NCBI GenBank assembly: GCA_024137785.1
Contig: JAHRHZ010000022.1
Location: 27,704,377-27,768,376 of the forward strand
Origin: Ginglymostoma cirratum
Lineage: Eukaryota
Direction of reading: 5' to 3'
Length of the DNA: 64,000 bases
Shown: positions 1 to 57,836 of the stretch, in pieces
Layout of the letters: each line of letters starts with the position of its first letter
Position numbering within the stretch: the first letter of the stretch is position 1
Notes under the pieces: generated by a model
The model's database searches: none
What the model saw: the letters and a program-made list of their open reading frames with translations, nothing else
What the model was told of the DNA's origin: nothing
Made by a program: the position numbers and the translations under genes

Positions 1-98
1 GCTTTCCTGCTCCTATGATGCTGCTCGGCCTGCTGTGTTCATCCAGCTCCACACCTTGTTATCTCAGATTCTCCAGCATCTGCAGTTCCTATTATCTC
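1..98 (+). mobile_element. Penelope-like-derived short repeat, family 1 (cut by the window edge)
   Basis: Near-identical to about 22124-22223 and related to 31520-31620 (-). Confidence 0.7.
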
Positions 99-2105
99 CA
101 GGGGATTCATTAGTTAGGGAAACAGACAGGTGTTTCTGTGGTTGTCAACGAACTCAGGATGGTACGTTGCCTCCCTGGAGCCAGGGTCAAGAATGTCAGA
201 AAAACTGCAGGCCATTCTTATGGAGTAAGGTGAACAGCCACAGGCATAGTCCAGTTGGTGCCAATGGCTGTTATGGGAAGGGGGATGTGGTCCTGCAATC
301 AGAATCTAGGGAGTTAGGTAGAAAGTTAGCAAACACAACCTCAAATGCAGTAATCTCCAGATTACGCCCAGCGCCACATGCAGGTAAGTACAGAAATAGG
401 ATGATAAGGTGGATGAATCAGTGGATGGAAGGAGGGCTTCAGGTTCCTGGGATAGGCTCTGGGGACGATGGACGAAGACGGATTGCTTGCACCTAAGCAG
501 AGTTGGGATGGAGTTCCTTGCAGGGCATTTTACTCGTGCCGTTAGGAGGACTTCATGCCAATGTGGCAAAGGTTCAGGGGCCAAGAGGGAACAGTAGTGG
601 AGAATGACATGGTTTACAAAATACTTGAGAGTACACCAGGCAACAGCATAGAGAATGGCGAGTTAATAGGTGAAGTCGGTGTAAGGGAGAGAGAAATAAA
701 GTTCAAAACAGAGTTAGCATGCATGTATGTAAATACAGAGTATAGAAAGTAAGGTTGGTGATTACAGGCGCAGATTACCACATGGAAGCATGATACGTGG
801 CGAGAACAGGGGCCTAGCTGAAAGAAGAGCAGGACCAGCTGTTAAATATTCTTGGATACAAGTTGTTCGGAAAGGTAAAAAAGAAAGAAGGGAAAGGAAG
901 AGTATCAGTATTAGTTGAGTGCATTGCAGTGCTGGAAATAGAAAACATCTCACTGGATTCAAGGACAGAATTAACTTGGCTACAGCTAAGCAATTTAAAA
1001 AGAAAGCACAATTACATCGCTCGGTGTAGTCTACTGACCACCAACTCAAGGAACAGATGTACAGACGCAAATCTGCAAGAAAATTACAGGAAAAAAAAAA
1101 GACAACATTGTAGTTATAATGGGAGACTTCAATGACCCAAATATATAGAGTGGGATACTGGTAGTATAAGGGGCAGATGTCCTGAGAATTGGTTCAAAAA
1201 GAGTTCCCATGACAGCATGCGTCCAGTCCAACAAGAAAGGATGCACCATTGTACCTGGTCCTTGGCCAAGTGAATGAACCATCAGTTCAGGACTATTTAG
1301 GAAGCAGTGATCATTGTATCATAAGGTTCATGATGGATGAAGAAAATGTTGTGAAACAATCTAGAGTAAAACCAATTGGCGGAGAGCTGATTTCAAAAGA
1401 GTAAGAGCAGACCTGGGTAGGACTGATCAGAACAAGGAGGCAGGTAGGAGAAACAGTAACTGAACAACTGGCTACTTTCAAAGAGGAAGTGGTTCAGCAC
1501 AGCAAAAGGAACATCCTACAAATGGGATAAAGATAGGACAAACAAATCCAAAGTTCCCTGGTTAACAAATGAAAGAAATTAACATTAGAAAGAAAAAAAG
1601 TACTTGTGACAGTGTAAGGCAGAGAATATAATTGAGAGCAAAGAGGAATACCAAAGGTTCACAGTGGAGGTGAAAAAGTAAAGAGAAGCAATGAGAAATT
1701 ATATGAAGACTAGAAGCTAACAAACAGGGGAATCCTAAAGTCTTCCAAAGGTATCTAAATAGTAAATAATGGTAGTAAAAGGAGGAGTAGGGCCAGAGAC
1801 TGAAAAGGATTTACACATGGAGGCAGAGGATTTAAAGACACATGCAAAAGAAGCAACGATGTGAGAAAAAAATTTCAACACTCAGCAAGAAGTTAGGATA
1901 TTGATTGCACTGCCTGAAAGGATGGTGGAGGCAGGTTCAATTGAAACACTCAAGAGGCCATTAGATGATAATTTGGATCAAAATAATATGCAAGGGTTTG
2001 GGGGAAAAGCAGTAAGTTGGCTCTAGGTAATAATGCTCTTTGAAGCACTGGTATAGGCACAATGGACCAAATAACCACCTGTGCTGCAACAAATTCTGTC
2101 AATTG
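99..2105 (+). mobile_element. Decayed CR1-type LINE (ORF1 SGNH esterase, APE endonuclease remnants, 3' end)
   Basis: GDSLVRETDR esterase motif at about 101; MGDFN at about 1119; LGSSDH at about 1297; frameshifted. Confidence 0.75.
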
Positions 2106-2109
2106 GATC

Positions 2110-2570
2110 ACAAAATTGGTGATAATTGTACTATTCAATGACTTAACAGAGGGGAGCAAAGGCATGGCAGCTCAACTTGCAGACAGCACTGAGATTGTTT
2201 GCAAAGTTTGGTGTGAAGACATAAGGAGGTTGCAAAGAAATAAAAATAGGTTAAGTTAGTGCGCAAAAATCTGGTGGATGAAGTATAATATGGGAAAATG
2301 TGAAGTTGTTCACTTTGGCAAGAAGAATGAAAAAAAGAGTATTACTAAACGAAAAATGACTGCAGAATTGAAGTGCAGATGGGTTTTGGTTTTGAGTGCA
2401 CAAGTTTCACAAAGCATCAGTATGTCATGGACACGACTCTTCATTACGAGAGTATTTCAGTTAAAAGTGAGGAGGTCATGCTTCAGTTATTGAGGGCATT
2501 GGTGAGACTGCATCTCAAATACACTGCAGTTTTGGTCTCTTCATTTAAAAAGGATCTAAATGCATTGACC
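2110..2570 (+). mobile_element. CR1 LINE RT C-terminal fragment
   Basis: NMGKCEVVHFGKKN and LVRLHLKY motifs. Confidence 0.75.
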
Positions 2571-3179
2571 ATAAGACATAGCAACGTAAGCAGGCCATTC
2601 AGCCAGTTATAATTACTCCTCTGAAAGTGAACAACCTCACATTTTACCACATTGTACTCCATCTGCCAAATTTTTGCCCACTCATCACCTGTCCATATCC
2701 TTCTGGCGATTCTGTAACCTTCTCAAGTGGAATAGCAAGATTCCTTAAATTTAAACCATTTCACCCACTCCCCCCCCCCCCGCCCCACAAAGACTTCCAG
2801 TCTCCTCTGGGAGATAGACACCACATAGGACGTCTGAGAAGGTCTCTAGAGTTCATCAAAAAAAAAACTTAGCAATGAACTTAGACAGTTGACTGACTGT
2901 GAAAGTACAAGCACCTTTGGAAATTGGAGTTCATTCCAGAAAAGGAGTGAAATTTCACAGCTGTCTTTGGAGAGACCTCATTAGAATTGGTCACAGTTGG
3001 GAATGTCAGGATTTCATTGATCAGCTAAGTGTTTGTTTTTAAAACTTATAAATCTTGATTTTTAGTGAGTAGGGTGACATTTTTAATGTTTTGCTGAGAT
3101 CTGTCTCAATTAATTTTTTTTTGATATAAAACATAGGTATTAATTTATCCTAGAGCAGCAAGACTGCTATTTTCTGGTT

Positions 3180-4845
3180 CTGTAAATTAAGGCACAAAGA
3201 TGGCCTTGAGAAGAGTGATGCGCTCTTCCTGTCAGATGGGAGATCAGGGAGAATTTCAATGTCCCTGATGATAATGTCTGCAGGAAGTGTGCTTGGTTGC
3301 AAATCCCATCGGATCTCATGGACCATTTGGAGCAGCAGATACAATGAGGAATTTACAGGAACTGTTATGGATGGTAGTTTCAGGAAGGTGGAAAAAACAC
3401 AAATACAGTCAGGTAGAGAGAGAGATAACAAGGTATAGAGCTGGATGAACATGAATGCATTTCTGAAGAAGGGTCCAGACCCGAAACGTCAGCTTTCCTG
3501 CTCGGCCTGCTGTGTTCATCCAGTTCTACACCATGTTATCTCTAATACAGTCAGGTATATGGGTTACTTGTAGGAAAGGTGGGAGGGGTGAGCAGATAGT
3601 GGAGGAGTCTCCTGTGACTATCCCCATCTCAAACAAGTATGCTATTTTGGAAAATGCAGGGCATGATGGATTCTCAGGAGAATGCAGCACTGGCAGTCAG
3701 GTTTCCAGTACCAAGACTGGCTCTACTGTAAAGAGGTGTATGTCAGGTTCCAAGCCGTGACTGGGGTCTCTCTAGTCAGGGGCACAGACAGACATTTGTG
3801 GCCAACTGCAAGACATCAGAATAGTGTGTTGCCTCCCTAGTGTTTGGGTCAAGGAAATCTGAGAGGGTGTAGAATATTCTCAAAGGGGAGAGTGACCAGC
3901 AGGAAGTCAATGCACACATTTCAAGAGAAAGGGACAAGGTCATGAAGACAGAAATAGGAAATTAGGCAGGACGTTAGAAAGTAGCTCCTCAAGGGTACTA
4001 ATATCTGGATTACTCCCACTGCCACATGCTACTGAGAGTAGGAACAGGAGGATAGAGCAGATGAATGCATGGCTGAGAAGCTGGTACAGGGGGCAGAGAT
4101 GCATATTTTTGGATCATTGGAATCTCCTCTGGGGTGGAAGTGACTATTCTGAGGGTGGAGTCATAGATAAACGGGGTAGTAAACACTTGCTTTTATTGGT
4201 CAGTGCAATGAGTATGTAGGTGTTGGGATGACTTGTTGCAACTGCACAGGACTCAGGTTAGGCCGCCTCTGGAATACTGCATTCAATTCTGGTGTCCCTG
4301 CTACAAGAAAGATGTTGTTAAACTTGAAAGGGTGCAGAAAAGACTTATAGGGATGTTTCCAGGATTGGAGGGTTTGAGCTCTAGGGAGAAGCTGAACAGG
4401 CTGGGGCTATTTTCCCTGGAGCCCAGGAGGCCATGGGAGGAAACCTTACAGAGGTTTATAAAATCATGAGGAGCATGAATAGGGTGCACAGCCAAGGTCT
4501 TTTATCCCCAAGGTAGCAGAATCCAAAACTAGAGGGCATAGGTTTAAAGGCAAGTGGGGAAAGATATAAAAAGGGACATTAGGGGCAATGTTTTCACATG
4601 GAGAGTGGCGTGTGTATGGAATGAGCTGCCAGAGGTGGTGGTGGAGGAGGCTGGTACAAGTACAATTACAATTACAATTACAACATTTAAAAGGCATCTG
4701 GATGGGTACATGAATAGGAAAGATGTAGAGGGATACGGGCCAAATGTTGGCAGCTGCGACTTTAATAATTTAGAACATCTGCTCAGCATAGACAAGTTGC
4801 CATGAAGGGTCTGTTTTTGTGCGGTGCAACTCTATGACTCTATAC
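3180..4845 (+). mobile_element. CR1 LINE: ORF1 remnant joined to the ORF2 3' end and tail
   Basis: Cys-rich VCRKC, ESPVTIPISNKYAILE and SLVRGTDR, then VRPPLEYCIQFWCP...LERVQKR and a tail ACTCTATGACTCTAT. Confidence 0.8.
3416..3543 (+). mobile_element. Hammerhead-motif Penelope-like-derived element, family 1, with inverted arms and 14-bp TSD
   Basis: CTGAAGA-A-GGGTCCAGACCC-GAAACGTC (3463-3490); TSD AATACAGTCAGGTA at 3402-3415 and 3544-3557. Confidence 0.75.
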
Positions 4846-21190: not shown

Positions 21191-22099
21191 TGTTTTGGTA
21201 TGAAGTATAAAAAAAATTCTTGTCAAAAAAATGTTGAAATAAGTTAATAGAACAAAAGGATTTAGGAATACAGTTGCACATGTTAAATAATGATAGATTT
21301 ATAAAGCAATAAACAAGCCATTGAGTATTGGGATACATTTCTATCCTCCCATAGCACTGAGAAGCAGAGACTTGAATTACTCTCTAAGATTAAACAGGAT
21401 GGGACACTCCCTTAATACTGGAGGAGATGACATGGTAGAGGATGTCAAGTTTAACTGGGAATGTGTAATGGTAGACCTATTGGAAGTGTTGTGGTGGATG
21501 CAAAGCTTGGTGCTTTAGAGGCAAGTTATTTGTAAATCTGATAAGGAATTCCAGAGAAATATTTTTACCCATATAATAGGAATGTGAAACTCACTTCTGC
21601 AAGTAGTTAGGTGGAAGGCATAGATCCCATAAATGTCAAATTAGATATAAACTGTGGGAGTAAGGCCTAAAAGGACAGATTGATGAGGTGAGGTAAGAGA
21701 TTTGGAGGTTGCTCCTGTGGAGTGTAAGCATCAACATAGATGTGTTGGGCACAGTGGTCCTATAGCAAGTACAAAGTGTTTGTTCTTTGGTTTGTGGCAG
21801 AACCTTAGTTATAGTCCTGTGCAAAGCAACAGATGCTCTGTTTCTTGGACTTCTGACTCAATTTACAGATATACCTGGCAGATCTACCACTTTCCCGAGG
21901 ATGCTAAAACAGTAAAACCTGAAAATGAATAGCAAGAACAAGAAGTGTCAAGAAACAACTTCTTCCAAATGTAAAAATGGCAAAAAAAAACTCAACACAA
22001 GGAAGTAAATGTTGAAGAAAGCATGTTGTTGAATCTGAATAAGGATTTCATTTAAGGAAAGGAAAATACATCAACCTTGAAATCTAAACAAATAAAATG

Positions 22100-22224
22100 A
22101 AGAAGGGTCTAGGCCCGAAAGGTCAGCCTTCCTGCTCCTCTGATGCTGCTGGGCCTGCTGTGTTCATCCAGCTCTACACCTTGTTATCTCAGATTCTCCA
22201 GCATCTGCAGTTCCTACTATCTCC
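22100..22224 (+). mobile_element. Hammerhead-motif element, family 1 (5'-clipped)
   Basis: TGAAGAAGGGTCTAGGCCCGAAAGGTC followed by the same tail as 1-98; AAAATG on both flanks. Confidence 0.75.
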
Positions 22225-22504
22225 AAAATGCTGGCAATACTCGGTGGTTAAAAAGTCATTCACCCATAATGATACTTTTCTTGCACAATTAAATAATGCC
22301 TTCATATGAATTGCCTTGCAAATGTTACTGTTTTGCATCTAAATATTTTTTGTCTTCAACTTTTTTTGAAATTGACAACAGGAAGTTATATCCAGTCTTA
22401 AATTGTGTACATATCAAAGCAGAGTGGGCATTAGTACTCAAAATGTGAATGAGTAATTAAGTGACTTTGAATCGAGAAGATTTACATATTTTATGACTGA
22501 AAAT

Positions 22505-22955: not shown

Positions 22956-23141
22956 CCAAAACAGAAGTTGCTGGAAAAACCCAGCAGGTCTGGGCAGCTC
23001 AGCAGTTCTGAGGAAGGGTCATTGGACTCGAAATGTTAACTCTGATTTTCTCTTCACAGATGCTGCTTGACCTGCTGAGCTTTTCCAGCAACTTCTGTTT
23101 TTGTTCCTGATTTACAGCATCTGCAGTTCTTTTGGTTTTTA
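22956..23141 (+). mobile_element. Hammerhead-motif element, family 2, with inverted arms and degenerate 14-bp TSD
   Basis: AGTT-CTGAGGA-A-GGGTCATTGGACTC-GAAATGTT-AACT (23004-23041); arms 22958-22990 and 23069-23101. Confidence 0.75.
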
Positions 23142-31519: not shown

Positions 31520-31648
31520 AGAGATAGTAGGAACTGCCAATGCTGGAGTCTGAGATAACACAGCGTGGAGCTGGAGGAGCACAGCAGGCCAGGCAGCGTC
31601 AGAGTAGCAGGAAAGCTAATGTTTCGGGTTGGGACCCTTCTTCAGAAA
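31520..31648 (-). mobile_element. Hammerhead-motif element, family 1
   Basis: Minus strand reads TTT-CTGAAGA-A-GGGTCCCAACCC-GAAACATTAGCTTTCCTGC... followed by the family-1 tail. Confidence 0.75.
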
Positions 31649-57703: not shown

Positions 57704-57836
57704 AGTTCTGAAGAAAGGTGACTGGATTCAAAATGTTGACTTTTTCTCACCACAGATGCTGCCAGACTTCCCCTGAGTTTCTGTAGTGATTTCTGTTTTT
57801 GTTTGATTCCCAGCATCCTCAGTGTCTTTTTTATTG
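57704..57836 (+). mobile_element. Degenerate hammerhead-family-2 element
   Basis: AGTT-CTGAAGA-AAGGTGACTGGATTC-AAAATGTT-GACT...CACAGATGCTGCC...CAGCATC. Confidence 0.6.

Follow-up and report, generated by a model that had tools for sequence, protein, structure and literature searches.

A minimal hammerhead core in a probable head-to-head, 5'-truncated Penelope-like insertion within a CR1-type ORF1 of Ginglymostoma cirratum

In a 64,000-nt stretch of the Ginglymostoma cirratum genome (assembly GCA_024137785.1, contig JAHRHZ010000022.1, positions 27,704,377–27,768,376 of the forward strand; hereafter, the window), a decayed ORF, which we take from its motifs to be ORF1 of a CR1-type element and which shows a match to a GDSL-like esterase (E = 0.0026, under the Pfam cut-off), is interrupted by a 128-bp insert (Table 1). 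An earlier sequence-only reading had described this insert as lying between 14-bp target-site duplications (TSDs) within a CR1 ORF1, and both points held: a repeat search of the window returned the 14-nt direct repeat as exact, the flanks translate as ORF1, and the duplicated 14-mer is present once in empty host copies. The inverted arms given in that reading were also recovered, at positions 3421–3451 and 3513–3543; they are 31 nt long and 90% complementary, with mismatches at 3 of the 31 positions, and the resulting hairpin had a z-score of −6.03, an equally good fold being found in none of 200 shuffles. Contigs of one sequencing run, presumably of RNA, matched parts of the locus, including the right junction, without differences, which attests the presence of this DNA rather than its transcription. 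Contigs aligned to 3150–3850 gave no pile-up of starts or ends, although contigs would not reveal RNA ends in any case.

Table 1. Features of the insert and its surroundings (positions in the window; pLTR positions are counted from hammerhead C3 = 0)
Feature	Position	Strand	Basis or remark
Decayed CR1-type ORF1 hosting the insert (zinc-finger-like start, esterase)	3200..4200	+	Translation
Target context, hot spot in CR1 ORF1	3388..3570	.	A/C-rich left flank, G/T-rich right flank
Left target-site duplication, 14 nt	3402..3415	+	Once in empty CR1 sites
(GA)3, outer end of the short arm	3416..3421	-	Read from the letters
Short inverted arm, pLTR +64..+93	3422..3451	-	pLTR alignment
Inter-arm junction, 6 nt	3452..3457	.	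Letters repeat those of the adjoining arm ends
Long arm, pLTR -5..+93, no tail	3458..3543	+	14-nt deletion after 3503
Minimal type I hammerhead core	3463..3490	+	Definition as described in PMC4209133
Right target-site duplication, 14 nt	3544..3557	+	Exact repeat

The hammerhead core comprises CUGANGA, one extra A, a 4-bp helix II (positions 3471–3474 with 3479–3482), GAAA, and a palindromic 15.1–16.1, with cleavage predicted after position 3490. The core pattern matched once in the window and in none of 100 shuffles, in agreement with the position and helix II of the earlier description. An Infernal-type check had been proposed there; Rfam over positions 2500–4500 returned no hammerhead at E ≤ 10, and because its best match was an unrelated microRNA hairpin (E = 0.13), this search gives no evidence for or against a hammerhead. 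The proposal of a Penelope-type minimal type I hammerhead agrees with the description of the hammerheads of metazoan Penelope-like elements (PLEs) by Cervera and de la Pena (2014; PMC4209133): the CUGANGA core, the single extra nucleotide after A9, G10.1–C11.1, the palindromic 15.2–16.2, the missing helix III, and the location in a pLTR are the same, whereas in the shark family studied here helix II has 4 bp and helix I only 2–3 bp. The extra base after A9 was present in 258 of 260 motifs (shuffled loci gave 0–2 motifs), and the exact core variant of this insert was the commonest among them (16/260). As described in that paper, most hammerhead copies lie in scattered truncated elements, some of them in close opposite-strand pairs, which is also the situation here. 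We found no cartilaginous fish named there, and no description of this element's hammerhead in the literature, where supplements may nevertheless list such motifs.

Both arms derive from the pLTR that also carries the core, and core and arms belong to one unit of approximately 135 nt, the pLTR of an EN+ PLE. The translations of broken long copies contain, in order, a reverse transcriptase (RT), a CX4CxxC linker, a GIY-YIG domain, and the core, so that the predicted link to an ORF with RT and GIY-YIG was seen. The GIY-YIG domain passes the Pfam cut-off (PF01541, E = 2.5e−6); the RT match is under it (RVT_1, E = 0.0015), with RT motifs seen by eye. A CX2-5CxxC linker before GIY-YIG defines Neptune and Nematis (PMC8557442), and, judged by this linker motif, the parent element is probably of the Neptune/Nematis type. 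Across the genome (4.36 Gb), there were 4,898 exact and 94,833 loose core matches, and reversed-pattern controls gave 0. Neither a full-length intact ORF nor a 5' pLTR–ORF junction was found in the six long loci that were extended, and 161 tailed arms had no common sequence beyond the tail except host repeats. Related pLTR stumps occur elsewhere in the window at positions 1–100, 22098–22225, and 31521–31648. At 22143–22223, an ATG in the pLTR opens a 27-codon frame that runs through the tail and may be the N-terminus of the element ORF, an arrangement known from other PLEs; in the present insert, this pLTR ATG is lost through the 14-nt deletion of the long arm.

An intact core is ordinary for a copy of this Penelope-like family: all 11 core residues were intact in 27 of 41 copies chosen without any core pattern. 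Preferential conservation of the core was observed in these 41 copies, in which non-CpG positions of the core differed in 9 of 410 cells, as against 339 of 3,362 at other positions; when the polymorphic positions were left out, the comparison became 114 of 2,501 cells against the same 9 of 410 (p = 0.024, base make-up not being controlled). The core is thus constrained in the master elements, and across families as well. That the match instead arose by chance or is a dead motif, without a function even in the master element, is improbable. This alternative would account for a helix I of only 2–3 adjacent pairs in the family, and it gains from the distribution of 5' ends, which had no peak at the cleavage site (3 of 94 incidental arms at +26..30), and from the report that HHR mutants did not stop PAc insertion in vitro (PMC11167929). 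It does not readily explain the low variation of the core, the confinement of subfamily variation to N7, loop II, and one pair-keeping A/G change, or the presence in other repeat families of the genome of the same core with different helices. The paired helix II differs between families, but the copies are related, so that few independent covariation events are represented. In one such family (L223–L234; 1,570 pattern matches), helix II has 6 bp and occurs in compensatory forms, and helix I comprises 4–6 bp in 9 of 12 copies; this family is a better candidate for cleavage assays than that of the present insert. Another repeat family with a hammerhead is present in the window at 23004–23133 and 57704–57830; its helix II is longer, and its helix I has 4 bp.

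The weak helix I had been noted for this copy, and two adjacent pairs were indeed seen; the trait is not particular to the copy, however, since the sister subfamily has three pairs, likewise short of 4–5 bp, and it is family-wide rather than a sign of decay. In fold predictions for the core of this copy, helix II had a probability of 0.67–0.78 and helix I a pairing probability near 0. A lone minimal core cannot build helix III and needs a second molecule, yet the insert contains no tandem core partner, and two copies of the insert together were predicted to pair in ways other than helix III. The hammerhead of a single 128-bp copy is thus predicted not to fold actively. Many of the incidental arms (35/94) start at −9..+2, just 5' of the core and at the end of a C-rich tract; this pile-up may mark either an RT stall at the tract or the RNA's own start.

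The 3' ends of the same 94 arms fell mainly into two groups, with 41 ending at +87..100 and 38 ending no earlier than +122. When 84 head-to-head pairs were compared, a tail was present on one arm in 80, on both in 2, and on neither in 2, and the tail of the one-tailed pairs lay on the left (39) about as often as on the right (41). A TSD of 10–17 nt accompanied 58 of the 80 one-tailed pairs, the other 22 having none by this test; its mode was 14 nt (18/58), the length of the duplication around the present insert. This insert is atypical in being one of the two pairs in which neither arm bears a tail, so that either tail loss or double use of one start site must be assumed. Tail-bearing inserts at the same CR1 site start with letters that resemble its (GA)3, which is likely to be a slipped remnant of the tail end. 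The insert most probably represents two head-to-head pLTR pieces of one heavily 5'-truncated Penelope-like insertion that would be unable to spread alone.

The sequence-only reading was right in seeing a Penelope product in the CR1 ORF1, but its further proposal of a 128-bp noncoding element mobilized as such fared less well. Under that proposal, a non-autonomous ribozyme mini-element, similar to a retrozyme or SINE, would be transcribed and mobilized in trans as a unit. The clean TSD, the intact core, and the strong hairpin would suit such an element, as would the finding that in L002 and L019 the short arm is likewise broken at +64, the perfect central palindrome that is common to 32 loci, and the existence of non-autonomous pLTR derivatives (bioRxiv 10.64898/2026.07.22.740005). 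Nevertheless, the centre junction pattern matched only twice in the 4.36-Gb genome. One match is this locus; the other, L002, differs from it in its subfamily alleles, in the presence of a tail, and in its deletion. There are approximately 4,948 head-to-head inserts that contain two cores, and the centres of the first 50 were highly varied; the lengths of head-to-head inserts span approximately 130 bp to >2 kb; the tails, as noted above, occur about equally on either side; and the insert lacks a tandem partner. We regard mobilization as a 128-bp unit as very improbable, and there is no sign in the genomic copies that the 128-bp form would constitute a family, although exact patterns miss mutated copies and a few sister copies are possible. 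The closest other DNA match to the insert was 87% identical among 40 scored of 1,563 candidates. The 84 copies, taken in genome order, ranged from <100 bp to >1.5 kb, and extended loci exceed 2 kb. The junction of the 14-nt deletion in the long arm was found by exact matching at 960 places genome-wide, across subfamilies. The head-to-head layout is likely to be built anew at each insertion. As for identity with the non-LTR retrozymes (bioRxiv 10.64898/2026.07.22.740005; PMC6765202), these are likewise noncoding, carry type I hammerheads, and are derived from PLE pLTRs; however, as described, they consist of units in head-to-tail tandem, with two or more hammerheads, whereas the present insert is a single-core, head-to-head structure with no tandem cores and no sister copies found, and this identity was rejected. 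At L064/L065 and L069/L070, two separate perfect central palindromes lie approximately 430 bp apart, each adjoining one arm only.

Paired arms differed from each other at 7.8% of sites, as against 13.4% for shuffled pairs (67 pairs, chosen without regard to their likeness to the present copy; lowest of 500 shuffles, 11.9%), and rare alleles were common to both arms in 14 of 172 cases, compared with 0.9% in random pairs. Arms so unusually alike point to the same or a close template, a likeness that is equally compatible with fold-back and with a single RNA common to both arms. In the fold-back alternative, which resembles the self-priming proposed for the rotifer Penelope (PMC3846280), a single insertion would have acquired its inverted arm by self-priming on the first cDNA or on an antisense template; the subfamily and rare alleles shared within pairs and the perfectly palindromic centres at 32 loci speak in its favour. 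Most centres, however, are non-palindromic and contain extra letters, the two arms of the present copy differ at three of their 31 positions, and paired arms disagree at non-CpG sites in about one-fifth of cases (+31 in 12/57, +53 in 13/62, and +78 in 10/58). The 14-nt deletion is also informative: counted by eye, it was confined to one arm in all 10 close pairs picked by that deletion, and often to the tailed arm. In L198, L201, and L205 it occurs in the tailed arm alone, which is not expected from a fold-back copy of that arm, because the copy would carry the deletion as well; separate RT passes would thus fit better, unless the deletions arose in the DNA after insertion, as is possible. In one wider pair (L219/L220), the deletion was seen by eye in both arms. 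On this evidence, we consider fold-back unlikely, if somewhat less so than either a dead hammerhead or a mobile 128-bp unit.

We favour instead the separate synthesis of the two arms, and the following steps are read from genomic scars. An endonuclease of the element, probably dimeric, would cut the two strands with an offset of approximately 14 nt at a loosely defined, mirror-symmetric target, and each target 3' end would then prime reverse transcription inside the pLTR RNA, at either of two start sites approximately 33 nt apart. Both cDNAs would end early, mostly just 5' of the hammerhead, and repair would fuse them head to head. The hammerhead would be a passenger in the present insert, while in the master elements it probably cuts as a dimer or with the help of proteins.

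Several parts of this scheme have counterparts in known systems. EN+ PLE insertions, as described in PMC3846280 and PMC8557442, may have an inverted pLTR, an optional tail of 30–40 bp, and a TSD, and the family examined here has the same head-to-head, inverted, 5'-truncated pLTR with a one-arm tail and a short TSD as Pen2a_Av (PMC3846280) and the general EN+ PLE layout (PMC8557442). It differs from these systems in that both arms are reduced to pLTR stumps, which in the present copy are both tailless, and in that the TSD is longer (mode of 14, compared with 8–10 bp). For PAc, a Poseidon-type PLE of Anolis (Frangieh et al. 2024, PMC11167929), both target strands are reported to be cut and extended, and the tail is bounded by two internal RT start sites. 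PAc thus resembles the present family in its two start sites, in the hammerhead at the start of the pLTR, and in its predicted dimer, while the family here has the CX2-5CxxC linker of Neptune/Nematis and a symmetric target bias outside the TSD in place of the 5'-ATT-3' motif of PAc.

The surroundings of the insert provided further information on target choice. Ten of 11 other host copies were filled by a Penelope insert of their own at the same spot and one was empty, a sample biased by the fact that the query held the insert. There are 291 exact target 16-mers; of the first 100 in genome order, four were filled at the spot and one approximately 9 nt away, while 18 loci carried inserts at other places within the 160 kb around those 100 sites, corresponding to an approximately 35-fold enrichment over background for a 10-bp window (Poisson p = 6e−6). 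Fourteen other CR1 copies (L236–L240, L242–L246, L249, L250, L264, and L265) hold distinct inserts at this position, in both orientations and from two families, L264 belonging to another Penelope-like family. A wide-gap pattern intended to map inserts along CR1 gave 0 matches, probably because it was too strict, and target-site sampling was used in its place. At the pre-insertion sites of 43 unrelated inserts, we observed a loose mirror-symmetric bias outside the TSD, with A occupying −14 in 70% of the sites and T occupying +13 in 63%. When a matrix built from these 43 sites was run along 95 empty copies of the host, the CR1 spot ranked first and third among 550 offsets; among all positions of the window, the insertion site of the present copy fell in the top 1.5%. 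Such a loosely symmetric target preference predicts the CR1 hot spot.

Three other explanations of the hot spot were considered. CR1-specific targeting was rejected, since only five of the 100 sites sampled in genome order from the 291 exact ones were filled at or near the spot, compared with approximately 10^5 cores genome-wide; insertions at the spot are a very small fraction of the total, which argues for a preference rather than for targeting of CR1. The spread of one insert-bearing CR1 copy was rejected as well, because the inserts are of unequal size, belong to different subfamilies, and lie in both orientations. Microhomology between the target and the two RT start sites is possible for this family, but it is weakened as a cause by the use of the same spot by the other family of L264 and by the diversity of random targets. 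In one aimed literature search, we found neither a symmetric target nor a CR1 hot spot described in print for Penelope insertion.

As a ribozyme element, the insert is of minor importance, since approximately 10^5 such cores exist in the genome and both the motif and the insertion layout are of kinds already published; its value is that of a fossil of Penelope integration. The tandem and inverted structures of Penelope are still called unexplained in PMC8557442. It is possible, at somewhat less than an even chance, that the stumps record a Neptune-type integration in which a dimer acts on a loose, mirror-symmetric 28-bp site with a 14-nt stagger and the pLTR is reverse-transcribed from both ends at two start sites; that this preference is strong enough to turn the CR1 ORF1 spot into a hot spot, with approximately 35-fold enrichment, used by more than one Penelope family; and that the pile-up before the hammerhead may correspond to the 5' end of the RNA. 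The insertion mechanism read from these scars is the part worth testing: the two start sites, the rule of one tail per pair, the 14-bp TSD, the separately made arms, and the symmetric target are predictions for the in vitro system described in PMC11167929.

Within the host CR1 element (3200–4745), the ORF1 esterase jumps to the 3' end of ORF2 near position 4180, which represents either an internal deletion or two abutting CR1 pieces. The pLTR stump at the start of the window likewise lies inside a CR1-type ORF1, at a different position.
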